Shown here piece by piece: positions 13,086 through 45,710 of a DNA stretch of 64,000 nt. The translations under genes and the position numbers were made by a program. The stretch lies in contig OZ246404.1 of assembly GCA_965230955.1 (NCBI GenBank), positions 988,291 through 1,052,290 on the forward strand, given 5' to 3'. This DNA comes from an uncultured Candidatus Saccharibacteria bacterium (GTDB lineage Bacteria; Patescibacteriota; CALEFQ01). A model generated the notes under the pieces. The model was not told the DNA's origin and did not search any database. It saw nothing but the letters and a program-made list of their open reading frames with translations. Within the stretch, counting starts at the first letter, position 1, and each line of letters begins with the position of its first letter.

Positions 13086-13116
13086 AAGTAAAAAGTCAAA
13101 GGTCAAAAGTCAAAAG

Positions 13117-13752
13117 TTACTTTTTAAGGGTAATATTTGGGGCATTAACATACAACGGGACTATTGGCTCGGTAAAATCATGCGACTCTTTCAGTCTACC
13201 CTGTCCGATCCAGCTGATTAATTCAGCTCGCTGTTCACCTGACAAGGGACTAGCCAAAAAGTTTTTATTTTTAGCACCTAAGATAATTTTCTTTTCTTTG
13301 GAAATATACCCAAAAAATTCTTCACTTTTGACTTTTGACTTTTGATCTTTGACTTGTTCAACCGCGAACCGTACTTTCCCTTCACTTACCCGCTTCACAT
13401 ACACCAAATCTTTAATATTATCCAACACTACCGTATAAGGCGGCTTGAGATTTTTTTGATTGGCCTCGTAAATTTCAAAGGCCTCAATCGGCACGACGGG
13501 AATTTGCCACGCATAAGCCAGAGCATTGGCGGTGGCCGCTGCGATCCGCATGCCAGTGAAAGAACCCGGTCCGGTAACGCAAAAAATCGCGTCGGGTTGC
13601 CCGCGTCGCGCCAGGACTTTTTCAATCGCCGGCAGTAATTCTTTCGAAAGCTTAAAACCGGCCGCCCATTCGCGAGTAAAAATTATTTTAGAGTTATCGC
13701 CGTAAGCCACCAAGGTTTTTGAGGGCGAGGCGTCGATGATTAGATAAGGCAT
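13117..13752 (-). CDS. tsaB: tRNA threonylcarbamoyladenosine biosynthesis protein TsaB
   Basis: YeaZ/TsaB motif GPGSFTGMRIAAATANALA; size ~210 aa; contains a repeat-encoded KDQKSKVKSEE insertion. Confidence 0.75.
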   Translation of the reverse strand: MPYLIIDASPSKTLVAYGDNSKIIFTREWAAGFKLSKELLPAIEKVLARRGQPDAIFCVTGPGSFTGMRIAAATANALAYAWQIPVVPIEAFEIYEANQKNLKPPYTVVLDNIKDLVYVKRVSEGKVRFAVEQVKDQKSKVKSEEFFGYISKEKKIILGAKNKNFLASPLSGEQRAELISWIGQGRLKESHDFTEPIVPLYVNAPNITLKK

Positions 13753-13759
13753 GAAATTT

Positions 13760-13860
13760 TGTCTTTAGTCTTTGGTCTTTGGTCTTTAGTCGTTAGCCTC
13801 CGCAATTTTAACTGATGTTCTGGCGTCTAGCCAAAGACTAGAGACTAAAGACTAAAGACC
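13760..13860. repeat. (CAAAGAC)n inverted-repeat element
   Basis: GTCTTTAGTCTTTGGTCTTTGGTCTTTAGTC ... CTAGCCAAAGACTAGAGACTAAAGACTAAAGACC. Confidence 0.75.
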
Positions 13861-13934
13861 TCTATTTCCCTTCCCAAACTCCGTTTTTTATCTTATCATT
13901 AAGAAGCTAGGTTTTAAAGCATTTTCTGAATCTA

Positions 13935-14972: not shown

Positions 14973-15039
14973 AAACAAAAAACAGTCTTAAAGGCAAAAA
15001 TTAAAATTTTTGATTTCAAGACTGTTTTTTTGAACTCTT

Positions 15040-17268: not shown

Positions 17269-17352
17269 AATCATAAACAGGGCGAGCGCCGCTCGCCCCT
17301 ACAAACTTGTTCTTAAATCTTAATATCTTAATATTCTTAATATCTTTTTAAG

Positions 17353-17787
17353 ATGTTTCCCTTCATCATTCCCGTCATCCCCTTGATCGTTTTCGTCATC
17401 GCGCAGGGGACAAAATTTTTGACCAAATCATTTAGCGGCTTCAGCTGGCGAAATGTTTCCGCCTATGGCGGAATGCCATCTTCCCATACGGCGATTACCG
17501 TCTCGATGGCTACACTGGCCGGACTGGTGGCCGGATTCAACTCCATTCCTTTTATGATCAGTGTCGTGCTGGCGGTCATTATCATCCGCGACGCCATGGG
17601 ATTTCGCATGAACTTGAGCGAGCAAGGCAAGGTTTTGAACATGCTGGTGAAAGAAGTGGACGGCCTGGATCGAAAAAAATACCCCAACCTGGGAGAACGG
17701 CTGGGACACACCGGCTGGGAAGTTTTTGTCGGCGCCCTGGTCGGCATCGGCGCAACATATTTGCTGTATTTGTGGCTGGTGGTTTGA
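17353..17787 (+). CDS. divergent PAP2 family membrane protein (DUF212)
   Basis: GGMPSSHTA motif diagnostic of the acid phosphatase/vanadium haloperoxidase-related DUF212 family. Confidence 0.7.
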   Translation: MFPFIIPVIPLIVFVIAQGTKFLTKSFSGFSWRNVSAYGGMPSSHTAITVSMATLAGLVAGFNSIPFMISVVLAVIIIRDAMGFRMNLSEQGKVLNMLVKEVDGLDRKKYPNLGERLGHTGWEVFVGALVGIGATYLLYLWLVV

Positions 17788-17805: not shown

Positions 17806-17838
17806 AAGAGCGGCGGCCTTAAGACCGCCGCTCTTTTA
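17806..17838 (+). terminator. hairpin with GGCCTTAAGACC core (PAP2 terminator and IS-associated palindrome)
   Basis: AAGAGCGGCGGCCTTAAGACCGCCGCTCTTTTAT; same loop core as the hairpins at 17929 and 18390. Confidence 0.5.
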
Positions 17839-17839
17839 T

Positions 17840-17928
17840 CGATGACGTTTCCGTTGCCGTTCAATATAGTTCCGCACCCGATCGATATGTTTTTCGGAAA
17901 TAGAAAATGCTGAAACTAATCCAAAACC
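17840..17928 (-). repeat. solo partial copy of the IS right end (tnpA 3' fragment plus hairpin)
   Basis: rc translation ...VSAFSISEKHIDRVRNYIERQRKRHR* is homologous to the tnpA C-terminus ...FTVSESQVNKVKNYINRQKNHHKK; followed by hairpin 17806-17838. Confidence 0.5.
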
Positions 17929-18419
17929 CAAAACAGGGGTGGCCTTAAGACCACCCCTGTTTTTTGTGATGATTTTTTTGTCGATTAATATAGTTTTTTA
18001 CTTTATTCACCTGCGATTCTGAAACCGTGAAGGCACTATATCCTCGTTGCCAATATAAAGAACATTTGGGATATAAAATCTTAACTTGATATGAAGCGTA
18101 ACCTTTGATTGCACTGACCGCGGCAGTTACACTAATTACTGACGGTATTATAAGTAACAGGTGGATATGATCTTCGGTATTGTTACAAGCGATAACTACA
18201 ATGCCTAATTATTTGGCTTTTTCCTCAACCAGCTTTTTTATCCCTCTCTCAATTTCCAGGTTCATCAACGGGAGACGATATTTCACTGTCCATACCAAAT
18301 GGTAATATAGCCGACAAATAGATCTAGACATAAAAAACCTCCATTTGGAGGGTTTTTTGATTATGATAAAATTATGATTATTCGTCATTGTGAGATGCGG
18401 CCTTAAGGCCGCATCTCAC
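17929..18419 (-). mobile_element. IS200/IS605-like element (tnpA only) bounded by GGCCTTAAGRCC subterminal hairpins
   Basis: Hairpins at 17929-17964 and 18390-18419 flank tnpA; a terminator-like hairpin at 18333-18358 abuts the tnpA start, as in IS200. Confidence 0.5.
17945..18331 (-). pseudogene. tnpA: IS200/IS605-family Y1 (HuH) transposase TnpA interrupted by one in-frame TAA (18209-18211)
   Basis: Conceptual translation MSRSICRLYYHLVWTVKYRLPLMNLEIERGIKKLVEEKAK*LGIVVIACNNTEDHIHLLLIIPSVISVTAAVSAIKGYASYQVKILYPKCSLYWQRGYSAFTVSESQVNKVKNYINRQKNHHKKQGWS; family hallmarks YHxVWxxKYR, HIHLL, KGxSS and RGY. Confidence 0.65.
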
Positions 18420-19746: not shown

Positions 19747-19823
19747 AAGTAACAGGTAACAGATAACAGGTAACAAATTGGAAGAAATATATTTATTAAC
19801 TGTTACTTGTTCCTTGTTACTTT
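19747..19823. repeat. (GTAACAR)n inverted-repeat element
   Basis: Arms of 7-bp tandem units GTAACAG/GTAACAA in inverted orientation around an AT-rich spacer; supplies the last codons (KVTRNK) and stop of the FemAB gene. Confidence 0.8.
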
Positions 19824-20807
19824 CATCGCCATCTTCATCGCCTGATACCAAAACAGCCGGTAAACAATATCATAAGCACCAATGTAATCGACTCTTTGGC
19901 CGCCAAAACCTTCCTTATACCTAGTAATTCCCGACCAGGGATGATCAACGACTCCCGCGGGCGCTACGCCGTACAAATCATATTTGCGGCAACCGTTATG
20001 CTTCGCCGCTTGCATCGCCCGCCACTGGAGCAAGTGCGGCGCCATAAGATTGCGCTCTTCATTGCCGGAAACTCCGTGCATATAAGTAGCGGTCTCGCGA
20101 TAAAATGAAACCAGAATGGCCGCCAAAACTTTCTGCCGGTACTCGGCGATAAAAAGTTTGGCATATCCGGCCGGGCCGAGAATCTTCAGCAGCGACTGAT
20201 AATAACCTTTTTCGTGAATGTGAAATTTATCCCGCCGGGCGGTAATTTCTGCCAAGCGATAAAATTCATCCAGATCATCGGCGGCAATCGATTCACGCAC
20301 CGTCACGCCTTTCTTTTCCGCCAATCTTATATTATAGCGCCACTTGGACTTCATCTGGGCCAACACATTGTCCTCGGCCGGCGCCAAATCAACCATAATG
20401 GTATTACGCGGCTGGATTTCTTTCGGCGCTTTAACCGCACCCAATTCTTTGAGCCAACTCTTGTCTGCGCTGTCCGCTATCAACGAATCAAACCGGAAAA
20501 ATAAACAGTTTTCTTTCCGTCCTATCTCTTTGATATTTTCCAGTAATTTTGCGTTTTGCGTTTTGCGTTTTACGTTTTGTATGAACCTCGGCGCATACAA
20601 GTACCATCTATTCCCAGGCATGTCATATTTCAACACCGTCGCCGCCGCCGTCAGCTCTTCTCCCTCAATTATACCCAGCCGCCAGATTTTGAATCCGGCC
20701 GCTTGCTGAAATTCGCCCCATTCCCAAGTTTGAAACAAAGAACCGTCTGGCTGACGGCTGATAAAATTATTTAGCAGTTGCCGATCTTTTATCTCGATTA
20801 CAGGCAT
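19803..20807 (-). CDS. FemAB-family peptidoglycan interpeptide-bridge aminoacyltransferase
   Basis: ~330 aa; N-terminus FQTWEWGEFQQAAGF and overall length typical of FemX/FemAB; adjacent to the Mur ligase gene. Confidence 0.5.
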   Translation of the reverse strand: MPVIEIKDRQLLNNFISRQPDGSLFQTWEWGEFQQAAGFKIWRLGIIEGEELTAAATVLKYDMPGNRWYLYAPRFIQNVKRKTQNAKLLENIKEIGRKENCLFFRFDSLIADSADKSWLKELGAVKAPKEIQPRNTIMVDLAPAEDNVLAQMKSKWRYNIRLAEKKGVTVRESIAADDLDEFYRLAEITARRDKFHIHEKGYYQSLLKILGPAGYAKLFIAEYRQKVLAAILVSFYRETATYMHGVSGNEERNLMAPHLLQWRAMQAAKHNGCRKYDLYGVAPAGVVDHPWSGITRYKEGFGGQRVDYIGAYDIVYRLFWYQAMKMAMKVTRNK

Positions 20808-23954: not shown

Positions 23955-24009
23955 CCGTCTTTAGTCATTAGTCTTTGGTCTTTGGCTAAAGACTAATGAC
24001 CAAAGACCC
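23955..24009. repeat. (CAAAGAC)n palindromic element
   Basis: Between uvrB and truB. Confidence 0.7.
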
Positions 24010-24018: not shown

Positions 24019-24954
24019 ATGCTCGGCTTCATCAATCTCAACAAGCCCGCCGGCATCACCTCGCACGGCGCGGCAGAAAAAGTGAAAAAAATCACCGGCA
24101 TGCACCGCGTCGGCCACGCCGGCACGCTCGATCCTTTCGCGACCGGAGTGTTGGTCGTGGCCCTCGGCAAAGCCACCAAACTGGTGGAGTATTTACGCAA
24201 AGATGATAAAGAATACGAAGCCGTGATCTGCCTGGGCGCCACCAGCGATACTTACGACGGCACCGGCCAGATGACGGAAACTCCCCCGCCGGTCCCGGTC
24301 CCCAGCGGCGCCCAGATCAATTCTCTGCTCCAGCAATTTACCGGCGAGATCACGCAACAGCCGCCGAAATTTTCAGCGATAAAAATTCACGGCACGCCGG
24401 CGTATAAACTGGCTCGGGCGGGTGAAGAAGTGGAGTTGGCGCCCCGACAGATCACCATCCATTCGATCAAACTGACCGAATACCGCTCGCCGTTGGTGAC
24501 AATAAAAGTTCATTGCTCCGCCGGAACCTATATTCGTTCCCTGGCTTATGATATCGGACAGCGCTTGAAAACCGGTGCCTATCTCGCCGCCCTGCATCGC
24601 ACCCAAGCCGGCATATTTTCGATCAAAGATTCGGTGGATCTGGCGGCGCTAACCACCGACAACTGGAAAAACTATCTTCTCCCCCCTATGACCGGTATCG
24701 CTCATTTCGCCAGTTACGAAACAACCGACGAAGAGGCCGACCGCCTGAAACGCGGACTGAAAGTCAAACCGCCAATACCGCTCGGCCCAGGCAACATCGC
24801 CCTGATGTCGCCGACCAAGGAACTGCTCGGCATCGGCGAATATGATTCCGCGGAAGGACTGCTCCGCCCCACCAAAGTAATCGCCGAATCAGAGGTCAAA
24901 AAATCCGAAATCCAAAATCAGAAATCCGAAACAAATCCAAAATCAGAAATCTAA
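24019..24954 (+). CDS. truB: tRNA pseudouridine(55) synthase TruB
   Basis: HAGTLDPFATGVLVVALGKATKL catalytic-Asp motif; PUA-like C-terminus plus a repeat-derived KSE-rich tail. Confidence 0.85.
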   Translation: MLGFINLNKPAGITSHGAAEKVKKITGMHRVGHAGTLDPFATGVLVVALGKATKLVEYLRKDDKEYEAVICLGATSDTYDGTGQMTETPPPVPVPSGAQINSLLQQFTGEITQQPPKFSAIKIHGTPAYKLARAGEEVELAPRQITIHSIKLTEYRSPLVTIKVHCSAGTYIRSLAYDIGQRLKTGAYLAALHRTQAGIFSIKDSVDLAALTTDNWKNYLLPPMTGIAHFASYETTDEEADRLKRGLKVKPPIPLGPGNIALMSPTKELLGIGEYDSAEGLLRPTKVIAESEVKKSEIQNQKSETNPKSEI

Positions 24955-25112
24955 ATATCAAAAAAACGTGTCTCAATATTTGGAATTTTGACTTGTTTCG
25001 TGATTCGAATTTATGGTTGTTCTGTTGACTTCTCTCCTCTTTATGCTAAACTCTTAATATTCTTAATATCTTAGTATTCTTAATATCTTAATCCTCTTAA
25101 TATCTTACCCAG

Positions 25113-25382
25113 ATGCCTATCAAGAAGTCCCCTCGTAAATTTGTCCGCAAGACCGAACGCCGCACGGCCTATAATTTACGCGTCAAAAAACAGATCAAAA
25201 AACTGGTCAAAGACGCGCGCCAACTGATTGCCGACGGTAAAGCCAAGGAAGCCGAAACCGCTATCGCTAAGGCGTCCCAGGGCTTGGACAAGGCGACCCA
25301 GAAAAACGTGATTCACCGCAACAAAGCCGCTCGACTCAAGCACCGTTTACACGAAGCCAAGAAGAAAATAGTAAAAAAATAG
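25113..25382 (+). CDS. rpsT: 30S ribosomal protein S20
   Basis: 89-aa basic helical protein; RKxERRxxxNxxxK pattern typical of bS20. Confidence 0.85.
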   Translation: MPIKKSPRKFVRKTERRTAYNLRVKKQIKKLVKDARQLIADGKAKEAETAIAKASQGLDKATQKNVIHRNKAARLKHRLHEAKKKIVKK

Positions 25383-25392
25383 TTCAACGATA

Positions 25393-25420
25393 AAAAAACG
25401 CGCTCAATGGCGCGTTTTTT
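25393..25420 (+). terminator. intrinsic terminator of rpsT
   Basis: AAAAAACGCGCTCAATGGCGCGTTTTTT. Confidence 0.7.
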
Positions 25421-25757
25421 AGTGCGGTAATTTTATCTATCCCGATACTATTTTAATATTTTTTCAAAAATAAAACCCCTTTTCTCCGGCAAAAAGGGGT
25501 TTAACACACCAGGTAGCTCCAGGAGAGTCGGCTGGTCAGTGCTACCCAATACGACAAGTTGTTACCTACGCTGCACTCCTCACAGCATCAGTAGACAGAA
25601 CAACTTGGAAAAACCTGCTTCAAATACCTTAGGGATGGCCCTTTCTGAATCGCTGTCTTCGATTCAGGCGGCATTCGCAGAACGCTCTATCGACACCAGG
25701 GTGGCTCCATGTAGAAGACCTACCCTAGATTCCTTAACGCGTCATTATACACTACCA

Positions 25758-25824
25758 GTCAAATTTGTCAAGTCAAACAAAATAAGTCAAAAGTGAATTA
25801 TGGAAACTTTTGACTTTTGACTTA
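25758..25824. repeat. (GTCAAAA)n inverted-repeat hairpin downstream of holA
   Basis: AGTCAAAAGTGAATTATGGAAACTTTTGACTTTTGACT. Confidence 0.7.
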
Positions 25825-25825
25825 G

Positions 25826-27225: not shown

Positions 27226-27362
27226 TTCTCTTAATATCTTAAGTCTTACATCTTATACCTTAATATCTTTACATCGCCAGCAAAAACATCTCAAGTCTTA
27301 TATCTTACTTCTTATATCTTACATCTTATAATCTTAATACTCTTAATATCTTAATCTCTTAT
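27226..27362. repeat. (TCTTAATA)n-type tandem array
   Basis: Largest of four such arrays (also at 17309-17351, 25051-25107 and 45236-45292); overlaps the polA stop. Confidence 0.75.
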
Positions 27363-35185: not shown

Positions 35186-35189
35186 TTTT

Positions 35190-35330
35190 CAAGTAACAGG
35201 TATCAGGTAACAAGTATCAGGGAACAAGTAACAAAAAACAACCATTACTCTTAATTTTGCTCATATGTAATGGCTGTTATTCCAATTTGTTCCCTGTTAC
35301 CTGATACCTGTTACTTGTTAATTGATCACC
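35190..35330. repeat. (GTAACAR)n/(GTATCAG)n inverted-repeat element
   Basis: ~45-bp arms around a 50-bp spacer carrying its own CCATTAC/GTAATGG hairpin; lies between convergent gene ends. Confidence 0.8.
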
Positions 35331-38300
35331 AGCCAGTTCACCGGCAAATCGACCGGAGCCGGTTTCCCGTCGTTAGTCGAAATCACAAATCCCTGCCCCG
35401 CCCGTTTCTCTTTTACTTTTACGCCGGTATTGGCGTCATTGGAACTTTCGATCGTCAGGAAAATTCGGCTCGCCGCCGTCACGGAATTATTCGGGACGAA
35501 AATTTCCGACTTGTTGCCGGGGAGTGTCACACTACCAATCGCTTTATTTTCGCCTTCTTGGATTTCGATATCGCCGGCCGTGACTTTCTGGAAGACGGCT
35601 TCACCGAGACTGTCGATATGCCAAGTGGCGTTATTCGACCAAAGTGAAGAAGCTTTGAGCGTGCCGGCGATATCAATATCTCCGCCAATGGTAACTTTAC
35701 CGGTAATACCCAGATCGCCGACGACTTGTCCGGCCTGGAGCGCACCACTTTGACCGGTGCCGGCAGTCAGAGTTTCCAATTGTTTTTTGATATTGGTAAT
35801 CTCTTCGTTCATATCCACGATGGCCGCTTCTTGTTCCTTGGCCGATTGAATCAGCGGAGTGACCAAATTTCCATAAGAAACCGTTTCGGGCCGGCCCTGG
35901 GCGTCATAGCTGACATACGCCGGATTGACTTGTTGGACTTCTTCGGCGATCAGACCTTCCTGCTTGGCGCCGGGATATTTTTTGTATTCAAATGATACCG
36001 GGCGTAATTGATACAGCCAGGCGATATTATTTATATTTTTCACATTGTTCTTGTAGCGCAGGGAAGAAGAAACATAACCGATTGTACCGGCATTATCGAC
36101 ATACAGATCGCGATTGGTCACGCCTACCGTATCGCTGTAAGTCCCGACGGAATTAATAGAATCTACCGTCGCCCCGGCATCGATGTATAGGCCGTATTCG
36201 ATATAGTCTTCCGGATCGAGCCAAGCGACATAATCCGTCCCGCTATTACTGGCTTCATCCACCGCGATCGAAAGTCCCATATCATTACCGGCCGCCGCCG
36301 CATTCACGTCAATCGAGACTCCGTAATCCGCTGCGGCTCCGCCGGTAGTGACCAAGAAAGTACCGCCCGTATTCCCCAACGCCGCGCCGGTCGCCAATCC
36401 CACAACGCCGATATTGTAGCCAAGGCTGGTTTGGTCTACCAACCCGCCGATACCATTGAAATGAACGGTGCTATTGTAAGTGATATTGCCCCCCTGTGTT
36501 CCCACAACGCCATAGAGATCACTATTGCTATAGGAATCCCCGGCGGTTCCCCCCACCCAGCCGTTAACACCGGCGATAAAATTCGTCCCGGAATCTGTCG
36601 TCACCGTCCCTTGATTATAGAAACCAACATTGAGGACATCCATCCCGGCAGTGACATCTTTTAGTGTATAGCCATCTTTGTTGCCCAAAATAAATTTACC
36701 GGCATGATTTTCGGCATAGACGCCATTATAATCAAGTGACGCATCTAATCCGAGATAACCGGACATACCCAAAGCTTCATCAGTATCATACGTAGTATGC
36801 ACTGAAGCCGTCAGCATAGCAGCTTTAACCCCGATAGTTGATTTACCATCATTAGCAGTCCCGGGATTTCCTTGTACGCCTATTTTGTTACCGGTCACTG
36901 CCGACAATACGTCGAAATAACCACCCCAATTTGATCCTGACCCACTTTCAGCTGATCCATAGATAGCAACATTTTGGTTAGTATTATTACTGGCCCGGCC
37001 ATACACACCGGTATTATATCCCGCCGCCCCGGCACCGTTGGAATTTCCGGTTATGCCGGCGATAGTATCGGCAGTCGCCAGAGTACTGGAATTGACCGCG
37101 TAAAGAGCGGACTGATAATCACCGGCATTATAAGTAGATAGAAAATCAAATTGTGCGCCGTATTGTAAATTACTCGCATGGTCATACAAATCCAGCTTAT
37201 AAGAAGGCGTCGTATCACCGATTCCAACATAGCCACCATCAAAGATACCGGCATAATTAGCCGTGCCACCCGAGGCTGTAGCATAAACAGCCGTATTACT
37301 GGTTCCGGCACCAGTAACTGAACTGTAAACACCATATTTGGTACCAGAAGCCCCCGTTTCAGAAATATTGATTCCCCGACCACTCGCACTGGCATCAGCA
37401 ATATTCATGCCATAGGCAGCATTGGCAGCAACACCAAATCCGCCGCGAGTAGCTCGTAAGTAGCCATCAGTGGTCTCGGCTGTGCCCACCCCTAGTCCAC
37501 CGGTCACATACGCATCACCCGAAACATATAATGGATAAGTGGCGTTATGAGCAATATTGACTCCAATATATCTAAAATCAGCGTCGCGGTCAGTATATAT
37601 AGTCGCCACGCCCCCCATGAACAAAGTATTAACGATATTCACATTACCACTGTCGAAATACCCGGCCCAGTTGGTCGTCCCGCCGGAAGCGGTGCCGTAG
37701 ATTCCATAATTTGTGGCATTCCCCGTGCCCGAACCATATACACCATAACTGGCGACAGAAGAGCGACTGGTCGCTCCATAAACACCATACTGGGTCGCCG
37801 CCCGATCAATTGAGGCATAAAGGCCATAATTAACTGTCGCCGAGCCCGGAACCGAAAGATAAATACCATAATTAGTCCCGGTCGCGCCGGTTTGTTCGAT
37901 ATTGATTCCGCGCCCGTCGGCACTGGCCTCGGCCACATTTATACCATAAGCGGCATTAGCGGCCACGCCAATCCCGGCTCGGCTCGCCCGCAAGTAACCA
38001 TCAGTAGCTTCAGCGGTGCCGACACCAAGCCCGCCGACAATAAAAGCATCGCCATCGGCATAAATTGATTGGGTCGTCCCGCCGATCACATATAGGCCGT
38101 ATTCGGCATTGGCTCCCGCCTGGAAAAATCCGGCATAATCGGTACCGGCGGCACCCGTGACATTAAAACGCCCGCCGTAATTGCTCCCCGTGGCGCCGGA
38201 AGACACACCGTAAACACCGTAGTTTTCCGTGCCGGTATTCGATGCTGTTCCGTAGACTCCATAATTATCCGTCGCAGCGGCTCCGGCGACGGAGAAATAT

Positions 38301-41300
38301 CCGCCGTAATTTGTACCGGCCGCTCCGGTGATCACTGACGCCAGGATGCCGTAATCATCTCCGCTACCGCCGGCATTGAGCTCGAAATATCCGCCGTAGT
38401 TGGCGTCAGTATTGCCGGCATTATCGATGTAGCCAAAAACACCGTAGTCGCTACTGTCGCCGGCCACCCCGATGATACTGAAATACCCGCCATAGTTACC
38501 TGAAACTGACGTGCCGGGATCGTTCAATAACGCATAGACGCCATAATCATTCAATGTTCCTCCGCCATCGACAGTAAATCGACCGCCCGAATTTGAATTC
38601 GCTCCTTGCGCCGCCCCCGCCACTCCGACCGATTCATCCCCGCCGTTTGGCAAAGCCACGTTTCCATAAATACCATAGGCGGTGAGACTTTGTCCGTTGG
38701 CGTTAAAAGTATTCGTCGCGTAGATCGAGTAATTGATAGAGGCTTCAAAAGCACCGGTACCACTGAAAGAATTATAGAAACCGTATTGACTGACTTCATG
38801 TGATCCGGAAACCGTTGTCGCCATATACATACCGCGCGCGCCATTGACCGTCGCTCCCAAGGTCGCTTCTCCGTGAAAAGCTTCGTTGTAATTGGTCGCC
38901 CCGCTCGCCGAAGCGTAAATAGCATAATTATTATAAGTATTGGTCGATCCGTCCGCCACGGAATAAATCCCATACGCCGTCGGGACAGCAGTGCCATCGG
39001 CACCGGTAGTTCTATTTCGAACATACAAACCAGTCGTCGTCGCCGTGGCTCCACTCGCGACACTTCCGCCGAAAGAATCGTAAATTCCGTATTGAGTCAA
39101 TCCGTTATTAATTCCATCGTTGGAAGTGGTACTGAAATAATAGCCTTGGACATCACCCAATGTCGCCGACAGCGCGGCGCTTCCGTGGAAAGCTTCATTA
39201 ATTCCGGCGGTACTCCCGGAAACAGTCGTGTGAATCCCGTAATTAGCCGTACCGTTGCCGCTGACTGTAAATTGCCCGCCATAATTATATACGGCATTCG
39301 CCACCACGGCGTTAACACCGTAATTAGTCGACTCACCGGCAACTGCGTTTGAAATATTTAAATACACGCCATTGTTCACCGTCGATGCGCCGGTCAAACT
39401 GATATAATTACCGTAAATTGTACCCGTCGCCCCGGTCATCGCCGTGTAGACGCCGTAACCGTTGTTCGACGCGTTGGCGATATTGAGCGAGCGTCCCGCC
39501 GTCGGCGTCGTGCCGATACTCATGATCCCGGAAGCGACCGAAACATTGTTAGAGTAAGTAGAATTTGGATAGAGGTAATCGCTCCCGACATCGTCCAGCC
39601 ACAAACCGGTTCCGCCGGAAGCCAGCGAGATCAAAGCGTCTATCACGCCTCGATCCGCCGCTCCAAACGCCGCTTCAAACGCCGCGGTGTTGTCGGTCAG
39701 GGCAAACGGAATCGCGGTCGTGATTAGCGCGTCTTGGAAATATATTTTGTCGGTGGAAAGTAATGTTATGTCATTCGTCGCTCCGGTGGAGCCGATAGTC
39801 AGTCCCGCCGTGGCGGTGATATTTGTCCCGACGCCGGTGATATTTTGTGAACCCATGGTCAAGGCGGCGTTGGTAATATCGAGACCGTTTTCCGCGTCAA
39901 CATTGCCGGTGAAATTCGCCGTGCCGTCAACGTACAATTCATCGCTCGTCGCTCCGCTGGCGATATAGACGCCGTATGTCGTACCGGAGAAATATCCGCC
40001 GTAATTTGTCGTCGCGCCGCTCGCCGTCGAATACAAACCGTAGTTCGTCGTCGACGCGCCCGTCGCTTCCAGGTACCCGCCATAATTGGCGTCACCTGTT
40101 CCGGTCACGCTCAGCACTCCGCCGTAATTAGTACCGGTGCCGGCATTATTGTTTCGAACTCTTATGCCCCAATCCACTCCCGCTGTACCGGTTCCAATAC
40201 TGACATCTAATCCGGTATTTGTATCACTTCCACTTCCGTCAGTCAGAAAAACAGTGGCTCCGTAATTATTACCACCGCCGGCTGTAGAAATACCCAAGAT
40301 AGCTCCATAATCATCGCCAGCATTACCGACCTGGACGCGTCCGTAAATTCCGACATCACTGCCGGCGCCGCCCGTCCCAACATCAAAGTAACCGGCATAA
40401 TTAGACGTAGCTCCAGTGGCCACTATATATGATCCGTAATTAGTGGTAGCTGCGCCGGACACGCTCACTTCCATGCCATAATTTGTCGTCGACGCGCCGG
40501 TGGCTGAAATATATTGACCATGAATTGTACCAGTCGCTCCGGTCATTGCCGTGTAGACGCCGTAACCGTTGTTCGACGCGTTGGCGATATTGAGCGAGCG
40601 TCCCGCCGTCGGCGTCGTGCCGATACTCATGATCCCGGAAGCGACCGAAACATTGTTAGAGTAAGTAGAATTTGGATAGAGGTAATCGCTCCCGACATCG
40701 TCCAGCCACAAACCGGTTCCGCCGGAAGCCAGCGAGATCAAAGCGTCTATCACGCCTCGATCCGCCGCTCCAAACGCCGCTTCAAACGCCGCGGTGTTGT
40801 CGGTCAGGGCAAACGGAATCGCGGTCGTGATTAGCGCGTCTTGGAAATATATTTTGTCGGTGGAAAGTAATGTTATGTCATTCGTCGCTCCGGTGGAGCC
40901 GATAGTCAGTCCCGCCGTGGCGGTGATATTTGTCCCGACGCCGGTGATATTTTGTGAACCCATGGTCAAGGCGGCGTTGGTAATATCGAGACCGTTTTCC
41001 GCGTCAACATTGCCGGTGAAATTCGCCGTGCCGTCAACGTACAATTCATCGCTCGTCGCTCCGCTGGCGATATAGACGCCGTATGTCGTACCGGAGAAAT
41101 ATCCGCCGTAATTTGTCGTCGCGCCGCTCGCCGTCGAATACAAACCGTAGTTCGTCGTCGACGCGCCACTGACTGAAATATAATTTCCATAAATAGTTCC
41201 GACCGTCCCGGTCATCGCCGTATAGACACCGTAACCGTTGTCGGCCGCGTTGGCGATATTGAGAGAGCGAGCACTGCTCGGCGCCACGCCGATTCCCACC

Positions 41301-42619
41301 ACCCCGCCGTTGGCATAAATATTTCCGCCGGTAAATTCCCAGCGGTCATCGGTGGTATAAGTGACTGATCCGGTCGCATCATTGGAGGCATACATATTGA
41401 GGATCGCATTGGTCGCCGCGCCGGCCGAGCCCTCACCGATCCGCACCGTGTTTAAATTTTCATCAACGGAAAAAGGCGCGACCAAACTATTCGCGCCGAT
41501 AGCAAAATCATCGGTCAGGGTATAGGGATGAATAATTATCCCCGTTTGCTCCCAGAGAAAAGGCTGATAAGAAATATCCGTGCCGTCGGACATCAAAACG
41601 GTATTGGCTAATCCGGCGCCGAGCCGGGTCGTGGTATTGGCGGCATTGCGGTAAATAATATCGCCGCGGGTTGTCATCGGATCCAGGAAACCGGAACTTT
41701 GGTTTTGCCAAGTGACATTGCCGCTGCCGTCGGTAATCAAAATCTGATTATTCGATCCCCGGGTGGTGGGAAAAGTATACGACGTCACACCAGTGCCAAA
41801 AGTGACTGCCCCAATCAAGTTTGTCGTATTGGAAACCGAAAGCGTGCTGGATAAATCAGTCGCGCCGGTCACGCCCAGGGTTGAAGACAAGGTAGCCGCT
41901 CCGGTCACGATGAGAGTGGAAGATAACGTGGTCGCGCCGGTAACGCCCAAAGTGGAGTCGAATGAAACCGCCCCGCTGACATGTAATCTCCCGTTCGGGA
42001 TCGAGACATCTTGCGATACCCCGGCTTTGGGATGTAAATTTCCGCTGCTATCTTCCCACATCCCGGCCGCCGGTATCGCCGTAGTATTTAAATAATTTAG
42101 CGCGTCGAGAATACCTCTTTCCGCCACCGGGAAAGAATCAATATTCGTATCAGTCAACGAGCCCGGCACGCCATAGACTCTTTCGGTATTCAGCGAATAA
42201 CCAACTCCGCCGATCCGACGCCGAGGCGACATTTCACCGTCGCCATTTACTTCGATCCCCAGATAATATACTCCGCTGTTGAAATCCAGATTGATCGCAT
42301 TGAGTGAGCCGAGATTAACATTGAAAACTCCGTCTTCCACCGTCACTTTGTTTCCGCCGATGTGATTCTCCGACCACATGGCTACCCCGCCTGAAGAAAC
42401 GTTGTAAATCCGAAAATTCATGTCATATACCCCATCGGTAACATTGGTACCGTCGGGATTGGTCAGCCGCCCCTGGAAATTAAACTCTTTAACATAGCCG
42501 GCGCGGACGTTTACCGGGGTATCAAAAAAGCCTACCAGTGAAAAAATCACCGCCAGAATAGCTAAAACTAGGGCTATAACGCCAAAAACTTGGCTTTTTG
42601 CCTTTTTTGTTTGAGCCAT
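35318..42619 (-). CDS. giant (2433 aa) membrane-anchored Thr/Ser/Gly/Asn/Tyr-rich surface protein with C-terminal tail-fibre-type intramolecular chaperone (peptidase S74) domain
   Basis: N-terminal signal-anchor helix; long NYGGYF/GATGT-type low-complexity beta repeats; C-terminus SSSLRYKNNVKNI...WLYQLRPVSFEYK...GLIAEEVQQVNPAYV matches the endosialidase/tail-fibre auto-cleaving chaperone domain. Confidence 0.7.
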   Translation of the reverse strand: MAQTKKAKSQVFGVIALVLAILAVIFSLVGFFDTPVNVRAGYVKEFNFQGRLTNPDGTNVTDGVYDMNFRIYNVSSGGVAMWSENHIGGNKVTVEDGVFNVNLGSLNAINLDFNSGVYYLGIEVNGDGEMSPRRRIGGVGYSLNTERVYGVPGSLTDTNIDSFPVAERGILDALNYLNTTAIPAAGMWEDSSGNLHPKAGVSQDVSIPNGRLHVSGAVSFDSTLGVTGATTLSSTLIVTGAATLSSTLGVTGATDLSSTLSVSNTTNLIGAVTFGTGVTSYTFPTTRGSNNQILITDGSGNVTWQNQSSGFLDPMTTRGDIIYRNAANTTTRLGAGLANTVLMSDGTDISYQPFLWEQTGIIIHPYTLTDDFAIGANSLVAPFSVDENLNTVRIGEGSAGAATNAILNMYASNDATGSVTYTTDDRWEFTGGNIYANGGVVGIGVAPSSARSLNIANAADNGYGVYTAMTGTVGTIYGNYISVSGASTTNYGLYSTASGATTNYGGYFSGTTYGVYIASGATSDELYVDGTANFTGNVDAENGLDITNAALTMGSQNITGVGTNITATAGLTIGSTGATNDITLLSTDKIYFQDALITTAIPFALTDNTAAFEAAFGAADRGVIDALISLASGGTGLWLDDVGSDYLYPNSTYSNNVSVASGIMSIGTTPTAGRSLNIANASNNGYGVYTAMTGATGTIHGQYISATGASTTNYGMEVSVSGAATTNYGSYIVATGATSNYAGYFDVGTGGAGSDVGIYGRVQVGNAGDDYGAILGISTAGGGNNYGATVFLTDGSGSDTNTGLDVSIGTGTAGVDWGIRVRNNNAGTGTNYGGVLSVTGTGDANYGGYLEATGASTTNYGLYSTASGATTNYGGYFSGTTYGVYIASGATSDELYVDGTANFTGNVDAENGLDITNAALTMGSQNITGVGTNITATAGLTIGSTGATNDITLLSTDKIYFQDALITTAIPFALTDNTAAFEAAFGAADRGVIDALISLASGGTGLWLDDVGSDYLYPNSTYSNNVSVASGIMSIGTTPTAGRSLNIANASNNGYGVYTAMTGATGTIYGNYISLTGASTVNNGVYLNISNAVAGESTNYGVNAVVANAVYNYGGQFTVSGNGTANYGIHTTVSGSTAGINEAFHGSAALSATLGDVQGYYFSTTSNDGINNGLTQYGIYDSFGGSVASGATATTTGLYVRNRTTGADGTAVPTAYGIYSVADGSTNTYNNYAIYASASGATNYNEAFHGEATLGATVNGARGMYMATTVSGSHEVSQYGFYNSFSGTGAFEASINYSIYATNTFNANGQSLTAYGIYGNVALPNGGDESVGVAGAAQGANSNSGGRFTVDGGGTLNDYGVYALLNDPGTSVSGNYGGYFSIIGVAGDSSDYGVFGYIDNAGNTDANYGGYFELNAGGSGDDYGILASVITGAAGTNYGGYFSVAGAAATDNYGVYGTASNTGTENYGVYGVSSGATGSNYGGRFNVTGAAGTDYAGFFQAGANAEYGLYVIGGTTQSIYADGDAFIVGGLGVGTAEATDGYLRASRAGIGVAANAAYGINVAEASADGRGINIEQTGATGTNYGIYLSVPGSATVNYGLYASIDRAATQYGVYGATSRSSVASYGVYGSGTGNATNYGIYGTASGGTTNWAGYFDSGNVNIVNTLFMGGVATIYTDRDADFRYIGVNIAHNATYPLYVSGDAYVTGGLGVGTAETTDGYLRATRGGFGVAANAAYGMNIADASASGRGINISETGASGTKYGVYSSVTGAGTSNTAVYATASGGTANYAGIFDGGYVGIGDTTPSYKLDLYDHASNLQYGAQFDFLSTYNAGDYQSALYAVNSSTLATADTIAGITGNSNGAGAAGYNTGVYGRASNNTNQNVAIYGSAESGSGSNWGGYFDVLSAVTGNKIGVQGNPGTANDGKSTIGVKAAMLTASVHTTYDTDEALGMSGYLGLDASLDYNGVYAENHAGKFILGNKDGYTLKDVTAGMDVLNVGFYNQGTVTTDSGTNFIAGVNGWVGGTAGDSYSNSDLYGVVGTQGGNITYNSTVHFNGIGGLVDQTSLGYNIGVVGLATGAALGNTGGTFLVTTGGAAADYGVSIDVNAAAAGNDMGLSIAVDEASNSGTDYVAWLDPEDYIEYGLYIDAGATVDSINSVGTYSDTVGVTNRDLYVDNAGTIGYVSSSLRYKNNVKNINNIAWLYQLRPVSFEYKKYPGAKQEGLIAEEVQQVNPAYVSYDAQGRPETVSYGNLVTPLIQSAKEQEAAIVDMNEEITNIKKQLETLTAGTGQSGALQAGQVVGDLGITGKVTIGGDIDIAGTLKASSLWSNNATWHIDSLGEAVFQKVTAGDIEIQEGENKAIGSVTLPGNKSEIFVPNNSVTAASRIFLTIESSNDANTGVKVKEKRAGQGFVISTNDGKPAPVDLPVNWLVIN
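39441..40060. repeat. perfect 620-bp direct repeat, copy 1 (inside the giant gene)
   Basis: Identical to 40548..41167 (offset 1107 bp); the tracked ORFs 39687..39968 and 40794..41075 are identical 93-aa products. Confidence 0.9.
40548..41167. repeat. perfect 620-bp direct repeat, copy 2
   Basis: See copy 1; flanks diverge at 39434/40541 and 40061/41168. Confidence 0.9.
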
Positions 42620-42724: not shown

Positions 42725-42800
42725 ATCAAGTAACAAGTATCAGGTAACAAATTGGAAAAACAACAATTTTGTTACTTGTTCCCTGTTACTTGTTACCTGG
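42725..42800. repeat. (GTAACAR)n inverted-repeat element
   Basis: Between the 774-aa gene and the giant gene. Confidence 0.8.
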
Positions 42801-42801
42801 T

Positions 42802-45126
42802 TTAAGAATCCGGGCCGCTTAAATCCTCTAAATTACGGTCTTTCTTCTCCTCCACTTTTTTGATCGTTTCCTGCATACCGGGAGTTTCAGGAGGAGGCGG
42901 CGGCGCAGCGTTTGGGGATGTCGGGGCATAGGGTAGCCCGGTGGCAGGATCCAGCGGAACATTGAAACGCACTACCCCATCGCGCTTAACGTTGAAATCT
43001 TCACCGCGATAGCGATTGAATCCTTTTTCAATTTTGGAAGGGAAAGCATACTGCTCGCGATCAACCGTCAGACGATAAGTTTCCGGCCCGACCAAGAAAC
43101 CAAATCGTCCGTGGCGATCGGTCACTTGCGTTTCCAGTAAATCATTGTACCGTCGATTAAATAATCTGACGACCGCCAGTCCCACCGGTTTCCCGGTCTT
43201 GGCATCATAAACCATGCCCCAGGGCTTGCTCTTTTGACCCTGAACGACCCGTCCGAAAAATATAAATAAAACGATATGAAGAATAAGGAAGATCATAGTA
43301 TAAATTGACGGGCTGATCCAAAGACACACCGCCGCGATAACCGGGCCGAGTATGGCCAAGATCAAATTGACCCGACGATGCAAGTAACGCAAGACCACAT
43401 TGCGATTGGTCATCGCCATATCTTGCTTGAGCATCGGATCTAAAGGCACGCTGACGGTAATAACAGTTTTACCGGAAGCGATTTCAATCGGCTCGCCGAA
43501 ATAAAGATCGTCATAGCCGGCATCGTGAGTTTTGCCCCGCATTTTTAGCGAGGGGAAGGCGAAGTTCGGCTTGGTGACCGTGATGCGGAATTTTCCTTCC
43601 TTGGTCAAAAAGGTAAATCGTCCCTGGCGATCAGTCACGCGAGTGCTGACCAATTTTCCCGTCTGCGCATCAAGCAAGCGTACCAGCGCCAGATCAACCG
43701 GAACTTTGGAAAGCGCATTATACACCACGCCCCAACAACGGCGGCGCCGTCCGGCAAAGAAGAGAAAAGGCTCGGTAAAAAGATACCAGAAAGACAGCAG
43801 GGCGGTACCGACATTGGCCATACCAGCCGCGGTCAGCAAGTTGGCGATCGCCAAAGCGGTCAGACCGGGAACGACAACCGACTGATTGATCAATTGAGTA
43901 ACCGGATTTTCTCTGAATAATTCGATATCCCGGAGCAAATCTCGCAGGGCGGTAATTATCAGTTCCGGAATCGTCAGGGGCGGATTCACCGGCGGGACAT
44001 CAATTCCCGGAATGGTGATCGTGGCCGGCAACGATAAATCGGTCGAAATATTATTACAGTTTCGCGCCATCACGTTATAAACATAAGTCTGGCCGGCCAC
44101 CAAACCATAGTGCGCCCGGCTTAACGCCGTCGACCAGTAAGAAGCGCCGCTGACCGATCCGTCGGGCTGTAAAAAAGCGCCGTTGACCAAAACCGCAAAT
44201 TCCGTCCCGGCCGGATTGCCGTTGGCCGCGATGGAAATTGTCGCCGTATATGTTCCGTCATCGGCGGCGACATAAGAGACACCGGGCTGACCCGGGACGT
44301 TCGCCAACGTACACCGCGTCAAGGTCGCCTCGGCGTTTTCTACGCCGCAAATATTTCGCTGTTTGGAATGCCAGGTATAAGCGGTGTTAAAATTTAATCC
44401 CGTGTCGCGCCAGCTGTTATCCCCGCTCTGCCAACCGGATTCGTTTACAACGCCGCGCCGGAAAAAATATCCGCTCAGCTCTATGCTATGCCGCGGAAAA
44501 ATCGGGACGGAGAGATCCATGTAATCCACTCCCGGACTGGCAAAAAGTCCCCGCGTTCCGACCAGAGTACAGCCGGAAGCAAAGCCGGAAGGGATACTGT
44601 TTCCGAAAGGATTAAAAGCCAAAACTTGTTCGGTGTATTTTTGGTTTTCATCCAGTCCGGTTTGGGTAATGGAGCTGATATTGGCTTGATTGACCACCTC
44701 AACGACGGTAGCCGAATCATCTTCCAGCAGGAAACCTTCTTCATCGGCCGACCGATCGGTAAAATTCCATTTTATAGCAGACGCGGACAAGCCTTCCGGT
44801 ATCCCGATTTCCGGCTTATTCGGCGGTTTGAAATAGAGATAACCGGCTTTGACGATATAATTGGGCGAGGTAAATTTTCCCGTGACAAAATAATTCAGCG
44901 CCTCATCGACCGAAAAATCTCCGGAATCAAGCTGACCGCCCGATTCATCGATATCTTCAACTTTCATCCGGTAATTCGGACTGGAATAACCGACGGCACC
45001 GGCTCGATCATTACTCCAAACAAAACCCAGGCTGACCGAAAGCAGGCAAATTAAAAAACCAATGCGCCACCAGCGGGCGAATGGATTTTTAATTCGCACC
45101 AGATTGTTTTTTTTATTTACCAACAC
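42802..45126 (-). CDS. membrane protein with two carboxypeptidase-regulatory-like (prealbumin-fold) domains and a Pro-rich C-terminus
   Basis: GTG start; N-terminal signal/TM; large extracytoplasmic domain; two repeats of GxVYxAxTGKPVxLAxVRL...TQVTDRxGRFxFL...YxxTVxKxxYAFPS, each following TM helices; PPPPPETP tail. Confidence 0.5.
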   Translation of the reverse strand: MLVNKKNNLVRIKNPFARWWRIGFLICLLSVSLGFVWSNDRAGAVGYSSPNYRMKVEDIDESGGQLDSGDFSVDEALNYFVTGKFTSPNYIVKAGYLYFKPPNKPEIGIPEGLSASAIKWNFTDRSADEEGFLLEDDSATVVEVVNQANISSITQTGLDENQKYTEQVLAFNPFGNSIPSGFASGCTLVGTRGLFASPGVDYMDLSVPIFPRHSIELSGYFFRRGVVNESGWQSGDNSWRDTGLNFNTAYTWHSKQRNICGVENAEATLTRCTLANVPGQPGVSYVAADDGTYTATISIAANGNPAGTEFAVLVNGAFLQPDGSVSGASYWSTALSRAHYGLVAGQTYVYNVMARNCNNISTDLSLPATITIPGIDVPPVNPPLTIPELIITALRDLLRDIELFRENPVTQLINQSVVVPGLTALAIANLLTAAGMANVGTALLSFWYLFTEPFLFFAGRRRRCWGVVYNALSKVPVDLALVRLLDAQTGKLVSTRVTDRQGRFTFLTKEGKFRITVTKPNFAFPSLKMRGKTHDAGYDDLYFGEPIEIASGKTVITVSVPLDPMLKQDMAMTNRNVVLRYLHRRVNLILAILGPVIAAVCLWISPSIYTMIFLILHIVLFIFFGRVVQGQKSKPWGMVYDAKTGKPVGLAVVRLFNRRYNDLLETQVTDRHGRFGFLVGPETYRLTVDREQYAFPSKIEKGFNRYRGEDFNVKRDGVVRFNVPLDPATGLPYAPTSPNAAPPPPPETPGMQETIKKVEEKKDRNLEDLSGPDS

Positions 45127-45272
45127 AAGAAAACGGATTTTATTCTCCGAACTCTAGCCTATTCATTATAACACGATTTTTGAAACTTGGCGATAAAACA
45201 GGGCGGCCACGCGGGGCCGCCCCTACTTCTATCTATTATCTTAAATCTTAATATCTTAACGTCTTAATTTTC

Positions 45273-45710
45273 TTAATATCTTATCTCTATCTCTCTCGTA
45301 TCGGCGTCGATAAACTTGAATCGCACCCAAATGCATTTTTCCGGCAAAATATCCGCGACCCGCTCGGCCCACTCAATGAACACGACCCCGGACGGATCCG
45401 CCAGCACTTCTTCCCACCCCAGCGCCAATATTTCGGCCGAACTTTTCACGCGATAAACATCAAGATGATAAATATTTTTGACTTTTGACTTTTGACTTTT
45501 GACTTTATATACCGCTTCCACCAAAAATGTCGGACTGGTTATTGCCTGCTCCACTCCCAATCCTCGCGCCAAACCTTTGATAAAAGTTGTTTTGCCGCCG
45601 CCCAAATCACCGCTCAAACACACGACTTCTCCGCCTTTTAGCCGCCGGGACAGCCATTCCCCCGCGGCTTCGGTTTCTCCGGCATTTTTAGTAATCAGCT
45701 TTTTGATCAT
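45273..45710 (-). CDS. tsaE: tRNA threonylcarbamoyladenosine biosynthesis ATPase TsaE
   Basis: P-loop GDLGGGKTTFIKGLARGLG; YHLDVYR motif; contains a repeat-encoded KVKSQKSKVKN insertion. Confidence 0.8.
   Translation of the reverse strand: MIKKLITKNAGETEAAGEWLSRRLKGGEVVCLSGDLGGGKTTFIKGLARGLGVEQAITSPTFLVEAVYKVKSQKSKVKNIYHLDVYRVKSSAEILALGWEEVLADPSGVVFIEWAERVADILPEKCIWVRFKFIDADTREIEIRY

Follow-up and report, generated by a model that had tools for sequence, protein, structure and literature searches.

Heptanucleotides are the commonest class of long simple sequence repeats (LSSRs) in many prokaryotes, and slippage has been proposed as their origin (Mrazek, Guo & Shah 2007, summarised in PMC4679880). 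Within open reading frames (ORFs), heptamer repeats are constrained by the frame and by the orientation in which they carry stop codons (PMC4679880). Here we analyse a 64,000-nucleotide stretch of DNA from an uncultured Candidatus Saccharibacteria bacterium (contig OZ246404.1 of assembly GCA_965230955.1, positions 988,291 to 1,052,290; hereafter the window), in which tandem arrays of the heptamer GTCAAAA and of several other 7-nt units lie between genes and, in frame, inside genes such as tsaB, tsaE and polA. We argue that these arrays are probably heptanucleotide simple sequence repeats, with slippage or template switching as the driving process and the reading frame as a filter.

Arrays of short tandemly repeated repetitive (STRR) sequences are said to have been described from cyanobacteria by Mazel et al. 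in 1990. The arrays of the window are not the cyanobacterial STRR1-3 proper, as the PolA relatives place the host among Patescibacteria and the units GTCAAAA, AGACTAA and GTAACAG differ from what the STRR consensus is said to be. With LSSRs (PMC4679880) and STRRs they share 7-nt units in a few to ~10 copies, a period-7 excess, a mainly intergenic position, several families per genome, whole-unit changes in copy number and a proposed origin by slippage; they differ in their host, which belongs to the Patescibacteria or candidate phyla radiation (CPR), in their units, in the inverted pairs that form hairpins at syntenic sites, and in the three-unit blocks that stand in frame in essential housekeeping genes. 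Direct repeats of TAACTGA are known from marine Beggiatoaceae, cyanobacteria and Bacteroidetes (MacGregor 2015, PMC4679880), and they too form arrays, of 2-6 copies, that lie for the most part between genes, with some in or at the ends of ORFs, where the stop-bearing orientation is excluded and the other gives a repeated heptapeptide; many TAACTGA arrays stand directly before a start codon, a placement resembling that of several arrays of the window. BOGUAY, however, has one array-forming unit where the window has several families; its sets are direct in 169 cases and indirect in one, whereas inverted pairs are common here; and its in-ORF cases fall mostly in hypothetical proteins or at protein ends, whereas here they also occupy internal loops of TsaB, TsaE and PolA (PMC4679880). 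No TAACTGA array was found in the window by Tandem Repeats Finder (TRF) or by our own scan.

Other described elements resemble the arrays in part. Rickettsia palindromic elements (RPEs; Ogata et al. 2000, reviewed in PMC10969869) are inserted into coding sequences without loss of frame, and in both systems a DNA repeat is tolerated in frame in unrelated housekeeping genes, at sites that the protein fold can accommodate, and leaves the same peptide in unrelated proteins; RPEs, however, are palindromic, mobile, ~100-150 bp long and conserved in sequence, whereas the arrays here are tandem repeats of 20-30 nt that lack element ends. The system of repetitive extragenic palindromic (REP) sequences, their paired form (REPIN) and the associated RAYT transposase (PMC3116915) has in common with the window intergenic inverted doublets that form hairpins and a single Y1 transposase-like gene at a syntenic position, but the arms here are tandem heptamers rather than 20-40-nt REPs with a conserved head, and the Y1 gene is interrupted and accompanied by another hairpin family. 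The nearer analogues of RPEs are 36- and 54-nt palindromes in tsaE and tsaB of related genomes, which are absent from the window. Small dispersed repeats (SDRs) embedded in the heptameric tandem repeats of Nostoc punctiforme, reportedly described by Elhai et al. in 2008 (a study cited in PMC3116915), are likewise very small structured elements nested in heptamer arrays, although phylum and sequences differ and such nesting is found here mainly in the relatives L013, L014 and L136. In Borgs, the repeats within ORFs are said to have unit lengths divisible by three and to be often long, whereas the unit here is 7 nt and the frame is kept by three-unit blocks only. Tandem repeats in ORFs occur in Borgs as well (PMC9879509), and the two cases share DNA-level tandem repeats that add low-complexity, probably disordered peptide. 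The literature searched linked neither Patescibacteria nor CPR with heptamer repeats, and a recent tree-of-life survey of short tandem repeats mentions neither these bacteria nor heptamer repeats. The arrays appear to belong to a known kind of heptanucleotide repeat, and their occurrence in Patescibacteria appears to be undescribed.

Results

Period-7 arrays in the window and its relatives

TRF and a lag scan of our own identified 25 period-7 arrays in the window, each of 2.1-7.7 head-to-tail units, against a mean of 1.4 and a maximum of 4 in 40 first-order Markov simulations. Each other period from 4 to 12 gave 0-9 arrays, and period 7 is the sole enriched class of tandem repeat. The two-unit GTCAAAA pattern, with at most one mismatch, matched 13 times (0.06 expected from shuffles). 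Arrays cover 6.6% of intergenic bases and 0.53% of coding bases, and so are ~12 times denser between genes. The heptamers fall into the families GTCAAAA, AGACTAA/GTCTTTA, GTAACAG/CTGTTAC, CGCAAAA and AAATCCG, beside which there are arrays of an 8-mer, TCTTAATA. In their tandem 7-nt units, period-specific excess, whole-unit copy changes and mainly non-coding position the arrays are of the LSSR/STRR type.

The best named relatives by PolA, at 50-53% identity, are Candidatus Buchananbacteria, Kerfeldbacteria, Falkowbacteria and a "Patescibacteria group"; a scan of GTDB species with PolA reached Patescibacteria at 47% identity at most, and these lack the period-7 excess. Relatives were compared as DNA loci (L001-L015, L136 and L137), the close ones having 77-82% protein identity. 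All close relatives show the period-7 excess, which is seen neither in the 47% relatives L005 and L006 nor in the 64% relative L015.

In-frame arrays and the reading-frame filter

Each unit was read as a three-unit block in both orientations. Three 7-nt units make 21 nt, or 7 codons, and GTCAAAA then gives a stop-free cyclic permutation of VKSQKSK; its complement, TTTTGAC, contains a TGA stop. AGACTAA has stops in either orientation; GTAACAG contains TAA, and CTGTTAC is stop-free. All in-gene GTCAAAA arrays of at least three units in the window stand in the stop-free sense, and the TTTTGAC sense occurs within a gene only as two units, in a PEP-utilising-enzyme-like gene in which a third unit would put TGA in frame. 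No AGACTAA array lies inside any gene of the window, which agrees with its stops in both orientations. Where array arms reach the 3' ends of genes, as in the FemAB-like gene (KVTRNK*), truB and rnc, they encode the last codons together with the stop.

The original prediction had placed GTCAAAA arrays in tsaB, tsaE, polA and several spacers. These arrays are real, at essentially the coordinates then given, which the scans refined; the gene identities agree with NCBIfam, and both the quoted translations (those of Table 1) and the arithmetic by which three units keep the frame are correct. The array at 29474-29510, which it had listed both as a plain occurrence and as coding, lies wholly inside polA, however, and its array at 25758-25824 was over-called: only 25806-25823 (2.6 units) is clean, the sequence upstream consisting of degenerate GTCAAAn units with a short inverted partner (AAGTCAAAAGT ... 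ACTTTTGACTT). The lysine-rich tails of truB and rnc, which it had set beside these arrays, are repeat-built, but from a different heptamer, AAATCCG/AAACCCG. It had missed two short GTCAAAA copies (12243-12256 and 56870-56884) and the wider phenomenon, which is general to period 7, includes several unit families and consists mainly of intergenic hairpins.

In tsaB, the four units of the window are matched by a single unit in the closest relative (L007/P0123, 81%); the gap is exactly 21 nt (three units, 7 aa), its flanks align perfectly and one unit is kept. The difference may represent a loss of three units rather than a gain. At this slot other TsaB relatives have GKRQKAKGK, which is translated (GGCAAAA)n, or different peptides likewise derived from heptamers. 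AlphaFold (mean pLDDT 84) models the segment as the loop that joins strands 126-133 and 145-149 and whose residues 138-141 have pLDDT below 50. In tsaE, the relative L001 (77%) has (GGCAAAA)3+GTCAAAA at a length equal to the (GTCAAAA)4 of the window, so that three units differ at the same position. The tsaE array of the window is a perfect 31-nt repeat with zero synonymous variation, and it extends a beta-hairpin loop by 6 aa relative to Thermotoga maritima TsaE (6n9a_E), in which a 6-residue gap falls precisely at the array site, between two strands; loops are likewise shorter in more distant CPR orthologues of TsaE.

Every close relative, and likewise Mycobacterium Pol I (6vde), has a polA segment of the same length, and the segment is therefore not an insertion; in Taq it is shorter by 4 aa. 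What the array occupies is a variable linker that was there before it, and KSKVKS was not found in Taq or Mycobacterium Pol I. In every close relative this 28-nt slot holds four heptamer units, but the unit varies: GTCAAAA in the window and in L009 (peptide VKGQKSKVKS in L009), GTAAAAG in L010 (VKGKEEKVKS), GTAACAG in L011 (VTGNREQVTK) and GTAACAA in L012 (ITGNKEQVTK). Among the ~930 lag-7 windows of each of the five genes the slot ranks first to third, but it does not stand out in the 64% relative. The translation of a perfect (GTAACAG)3 would be VTGNR*Q; that of L011 is VTGNREQ, TAA having become GAG in the sole unit that would form a stop, which is direct evidence of the reading frame editing a DNA repeat.

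The polA genes of L009 and L011 are 98-100% identical over most of their length, and a sliding identity profile confines their divergence to a tract of ~500 nt that holds the slot, within which L009 resembles the window and L011 resembles L012; the slot difference between them was therefore imported by homologous recombination. Fast in-situ switching of the unit, which we had considered for this pair, was withdrawn in view of the recombined tract, and the unit change is older. The tract corresponds to L009 10540-11080 (polA nt ~540-1080) and records homologous exchange between related Patescibacteria lineages.

Among the other in-gene arrays, that of the FemAB-like gene is kept in three relatives (Table 1). 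The truB tail is shorter in relatives and made there of AACCAAT units, and the rnc product has 281 aa in the window against 252 aa in L007.

Intergenic hairpins

Seven intergenic sites hold inverted pairs of arrays, with predicted folds into long hairpins (z -4.1 to -10.4); the hairpin at 13757-13859, for example, has a 27-bp stem, dG -46.9 and z -8.4. The spacers concerned are divergent, co-directional and convergent alike. The syntenic uppP(bacA)/DHH and T2SSE/TPR hairpins are made of GTCAAAA in L001 and L013 and of GTAACAG in the window, and the tsaB/LPG-synthase hairpin is made of AGACTAA in the window and L007 and of a CAGCTNT-type unit in L014; the relatives' hairpins all fold strongly despite their differing units. 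The T2SSE/TPR architecture, in which the arms enclose a terminator-like hairpin, is present also in L001, built there from GTCAAAA units.

Copy number differs by whole units. The uvrB/truB hairpins of L009 and L011 differ by 7 nt, the sole indel in 4.9 kb at 99% identity. The array at 13086-13116 makes up the complete spacer, of 31 nt, that separates the stop codon of tsaB (13117-13119) from the ATG of an MBL-fold gene (13083-13085), and the corresponding spacer of L007 has 2.7 units, a difference of 14 nt from the window.

A start codon lies 0-11 nt from the end of several arrays (13086-13116, 13757-13796, 19749-19775, 23986-24007 and 46573-46599), and others lie at gene ends or ~100 nt away, the cases being few. 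No recognisable Shine-Dalgarno sequence accompanies the start-adjacent arrays at 13083-13119, 13750-13760, 17346-17355 and 25107-25115; other genes of the window, such as that at 51270, carry a clear AAGGAGG. Rfam at its gathering threshold returned a single tRNA from the whole window and no family for the arrays, and a scan of 25350-25830 by E-value yielded nothing beyond chance matches of terminator-like type, all below threshold.

GTCAAAA arrays in metagenomes

An exact scan of metagenome contigs for (GTCAAAA)4 matched at least 120 contigs, with a GC content of 0.30-0.65. Among the matches listed, 70 of the 126 arrays lie in the stop-free sense within open frames of at least 150 aa, and the seven frames tested are all bona fide housekeeping genes (PolA 5'-nuclease domain, GyrB, RecG, AlaRS, QueA, PheT and PolX). 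The KSQKSKV-type segments occupy unrelated positions in these seven proteins, and the PolA site differs from that of the window. The 740 kb of contigs listed hold 319 period-7 arrays, against at most 36 for any other period; besides GTCAAAA there are ~190 further period-7 arrays with highly diverse units, and this diversity on GTCAAAA-bearing contigs points to a period-specific process rather than to one spreading sequence.

Nested palindromes and a Y1 transposase remnant

The arrays of relatives harbour small GC-rich palindromes. One of 36 nt, CACCGCTYCAAGCGGGNNCCCGCCAAAGGCRGTGG, stands in frame in tsaE of L013 (1141-1650) and tsaB of L014 (130-822), where it encodes CHR[FS]KR[GD]PAKG[SG]G; it was not found in the window. 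Another, of 54 nt and likewise in frame, splits the (GGCAAAA)n of tsaE in L136 (131-622) and differs by presence and absence between L136 and L001, which are otherwise 96-97% identical; tsaE of L137 (507-992) has a further insertion of unlike sequence at the same site. A perfect 20-nt palindrome, CCTGCCTGCCGGCAGGCAGG, occurs three times in L013 (84-103, 1042-1061 and 4140-4159) and once in the window (~30325-30345), adjoining or within TTTTGAC-type units; it has the look of a very small dispersed element with heptamer arrays as its target. All three palindromes look mobile.

The window also contains the remnant of a Y1 transposase (IS200/RAYT-like, PF01797; minus strand, 17963-18330) with the motifs YHLVWTVKYR and DHIHLL, an in-frame stop after ...EEKAK and a second, C-terminal fragment at 17839-17928. 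It is syntenic with a 104-aa Y1_Tnp gene of L007 and L009 (47% identity). GC-rich hairpins with the loop GGCCTTAAGRCC flank it at 17815-17826, 17941-17952 and 18399-18410; the motif has 6 strand-matches against 0.6 expected and no other site in the window, and the hairpins look like REP-like or IS200-end-like structures. An origin of the heptamer arrays from a RAYT/REPIN system was rejected: the Y1 gene is broken by a stop, and its neighbours on either side are GGCCTTAAGRCC hairpins rather than heptamer arrays.

Feature coordinates and other repeats

Table 1. Genes and heptamer arrays of the window, in window coordinates
Feature	Positions	Strand	Reading, context or support
rnc	11371-12216	-	NCBIfam
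rnc C-terminal tail, AAATCCG/AAACCCG units	11408-11425	-	
Two GTCAAAA units, GGCAAAAGTCAAAA	12243-12256	+	intergenic, rnc-MBL-fold gene spacer
(GTCAAAA)~4.5, read on the + strand as AAGTAAAAAGTCAAAGGTCAAAAGTCAAAAG	13086-13116	+	tsaB-MBL-fold gene spacer; pattern search, TRF, own scan
tsaB (TsaB/YeaZ, 211 aa)	13117-13752	-	NCBIfam TIGR03725, 98 bits
GTCAAAA array, 4 units, in frame in tsaB	13324-13352	-	VKDQKSKVKS, aa 134-143
AGACTAA-family inverted pair (TTTAGTC x5.7 / AGACTAA x3.9)	13757-13859		divergent tsaB / LPG-synthase-like spacer
GTAACAG-family inverted pair	19749-19822		right arm encodes the FemAB-like gene end KVTRNK*, including the stop codon
(CGCAAAA)4, in frame in FemAB-like gene	20547-20578	-	QNVKRKTQNAK; kept with unit variants in L007, L009, L012
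AGACTAA-family inverted pair	23957-24007		hairpin between uvrB and truB; z -9.2
truB	24019-24954	+	NCBIfam
truB C-terminal tail, AAATCCG-family units	24901-24951	+	KSEIQNQKSETNPKSEI*
Degenerate GTCAAAn units, then short hairpin AAGTCAAAAGT ... ACTTTTGACTTTTGACTT	25758-25823		just downstream of the holA stop codon
holA	25826-26776	-	NCBIfam
polA (DNA polymerase I, 938 aa)	27359-30175	-	NCBIfam NF004397, 1064 bits
Array GCCAAAA GTCAAAA ATCAAAA GTCAAAA GT, in frame in polA	29474-29505	-	EAKSQKSKVKS, aa 224-234
GTAACAG-family inverted pair	35189-35324		hairpin, z -10.4; variant GTATCAG units mirrored in both arms
GTAACAG-family inverted pair	42727-42799		hairpin
tsaE (TsaE/YjeE, 145 aa)	45273-45710	-	NCBIfam TIGR00150, 104 bits
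Perfect (GTCAAAA)4.4, in frame in tsaE	45476-45506	-	KVKSQKSKVKN, aa 69-79
GTAACAG-family inverted pair	46573-46635		divergent uppP(bacA) / DHH spacer
GTAACAG-family arms around intrinsic-terminator-like hairpin	49620-49726		between convergent genes (T2SSE / TPR)
2.1 TTTTGAC-orientation units in PEP-utilising-enzyme-like gene	56870-56884	+	FLTFDW

The rpsT-holA interval (25383-25825) is ~440 nt long against only 65 nt in L009, contains a doubtful 85-aa ORF (25539-25796) and has degenerate GTCAAAn units at its end. A/T-rich spacers at 12217-12326, 51727-51776 and 62165-62215 are made of TTTNNNN-type units (TTTAAGC, TTTAGAT and TTTAAAT) and may be decayed heptamer arrays; the first of them includes a 25-nt direct repeat (12263-12310). 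A composite repeat found twice (17275-17346 and 45195-45283) joins a GC hairpin, AAACAGGGCG...CGCCCCTAC, to an 8-mer array, (TCTTAATA)n, and more arrays of this 8-mer lie upstream of other genes (25052-25107 and 27229-27358). A 2,433-aa ORF at 35318-42619 on the minus strand, with a 2,454-aa homologue in L009 that has no recorded Pfam match, carries tandem repeats of 12 and 36 nt (39656-39685, 40763-40792 and 41861-41956).

Discussion

The arrays are best explained, with a good but not overwhelming degree of confidence, as heptanucleotide simple sequence repeats of the LSSR/STRR type. The period specificity and the whole-unit indels are observed; as the engine behind them we infer slippage, by which, or by template switching, arrays would arise and turn over during replication, one 7-nt unit per step. 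Between genes any copy number would be tolerated, and the frequent inverted pairs would fold into long hairpins. Inside genes a filter by the reading frame is shown: copy-number changes survive only in blocks of three units (21 nt, 7 codons), orientations or units only if free of stops, and both only in surface loops, linkers and C-terminal tails; the avoidance of stops, the placement in loops and tails and the depletion in coding sequence are all seen in the arrays themselves. Each surviving GTCAAAA array reads as a cyclic permutation of VKSQKSK: as 7 and 3 are coprime there is one such cyclic reading, and the K/S-rich peptide is a by-product of the DNA repeat rather than a selected motif. 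Units differ in concert within arrays, and contraction and expansion would homogenise them, so that the unit could drift between species (GTCAAAA, GGCAAAA, GTAAAAG, GTAACAG).

Several points weigh against this explanation. A gain of three units from one in a single step is not a simple slippage event, and single-unit intermediates in essential genes would be frameshifts. No indels were found in ~33 kb between samples of one population (99.9% identity); the arrays are therefore not hypermutable switches, and phase-variable contingency loci were rejected, the arrays being identical across these samples and the in-gene arrays standing in frame in all relatives. The polA slot difference between L009 and L011 is a recombined tract and not a change in situ. 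The same small set of unit families turns up at many loci across many genomes, and its members replace one another in syntenic hairpins; pure locus-by-locus drift does not predict this pattern, which is a hint of conversion between loci, of mobility or of selection acting on the unit. That hairpin structure and position are kept while the sequence changes could mean function. The census, moreover, covers a 64-kb window of a ~1.1-Mb genome with a simple ORF gene map.

One alternative, to which we give a limited chance, is that the arrays, above all the inverted pairs, are selected cis-elements and the in-gene copies a spill-over of the system that maintains the periodicity. They could serve as terminators, mRNA stabilisers, RNase III processing sites, or A-rich leaders or binding sites by start codons. 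The syntenic hairpins fold strongly across species (z -4 to -10) though their units differ, so that the structure is kept where the sequence is not; variant units recur as mirror images in the opposite arm, an intrinsic-terminator-like hairpin stands between the T2SSE/TPR arms of both species, a start codon without a visible Shine-Dalgarno sequence lies 0-11 nt from the end of several arrays, and the 7-nt periodicity of the polA slot is maintained in five species. Yet the hairpins occur in all three types of spacer, unlike what a single role such as termination would give, palindromes can perpetuate themselves by template switching with no need of a function, the in-gene arrays have no partner arm, and neither a conserved unit nor an Rfam family nor a candidate binding protein was found. 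Another view, which we hold unlikely, is that the arrays are not passive products of slippage and that a dedicated period-7 process is common to many Patescibacteria-like genomes. Candidates would be a property of polymerase or repair, or a factor recognising 7-nt periodic DNA or RNA; such a process would hold array hairpins in place between genes even as their sequence turned over, would reseed GTCAAAA-like units into loops of essential proteins across distant organisms, and would offer landing pads for tiny palindromic mobile elements.

Spread by transposition is less credible still. The original prediction had allowed that the arrays were mobile, and they could be copies of an element resembling REPINs or miniature inverted-repeat transposable elements, moved by a transposase such as Y1 and carried in frame as passengers, like RPEs. 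In favour of this, the same few families are seen at many loci, unit families are exchanged at syntenic sites, seven inverted doublets in the window fold into hairpins, unrelated housekeeping genes (tsaB, tsaE, polA, the FemAB-like gene and the metagenome genes) hold in-frame arrays, a Y1 remnant syntenic with L007 is at hand, GC-rich palindromes of 20, 36 and 54 nt are inserted in relatives' arrays, including in frame in tsaE and tsaB, and four GTAACAG hairpins match a loop-proximal core, GTAACAAATTGGAA, a weak signal of 4 matches against 0.9 expected. No terminal inverted repeats or target-site duplications, however, were found at array flanks or at the relatives' syntenic sites inspected; in-gene arrays are single arms without the loop core; the Y1 gene has an in-frame stop, and its flanking GGCCTTAAGRCC hairpin differs from the heptamer arrays; and the ~190 other diverse arrays on metagenome GTCAAAA contigs better fit a period-specific process. 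Whole-unit indels that leave one unit behind are a signature of slippage, and mobility is better supported for the GC-rich palindromes than for the arrays themselves.

Selection on the protein, by which K/S-rich segments such as basic loops would aid nucleic-acid-binding enzymes and the DNA repeat would be mere codon bias, is the least probable account. TsaB, TsaE, PolA, TruB and RNase III all act on nucleic acids, and several relatives have lysine-rich loops, but the tsaE array is perfect over 31 nt with no synonymous variation, the GTCAAAA unit also fills non-coding spacers, the polA slot reads VTGNREQVTK in relatives, the segment is wholly missing in the closest TsaB relative, and the same peptide recurs at unrelated positions of unrelated metagenome proteins; protein-level selection for the K/S-rich peptide is essentially excluded. 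The original prediction's view of a nucleotide-level repeat rather than a conserved protein sequence is thereby borne out, relatives carrying other units and amino acids at the same sites, and KSKVKS, whose presence in unrelated orthologues it had named as contrary evidence, is absent from those compared: T. maritima TsaE has a gap, and Taq and Mycobacterium Pol I lack the peptide. Its proposal of loop insertions holds for TsaB (a 21-nt indel) and TsaE (a longer loop), both in beta-hairpin loops, but not for polA, where length is constant; and unit number does vary between strains as it had suggested for slippage, by one 7-nt unit between the near-identical L009 and L011.

Read as frame-filtered heptanucleotide repeats, the arrays offer a clean comparative case of a DNA-level repeat process writing peptide segments into conserved essential enzymes of a minimal genome, on the strength of the 21-nt indel, the stop-avoiding unit and the concerted unit change within arrays. 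They extend heptanucleotide repeats, so far known mainly from cyanobacteria, Beggiatoaceae and a few pathogens, to the Patescibacteria/CPR. KSQKSKV-type segments in CPR proteins should accordingly be treated as repeat-derived in alignments, trees and structure prediction, and the intergenic heptamer hairpins are candidate strain markers and candidate sites of RNA processing or termination. Should the specificity for period 7 stem from a property of replication or repair, these genomes would lend themselves to its study as a natural system.

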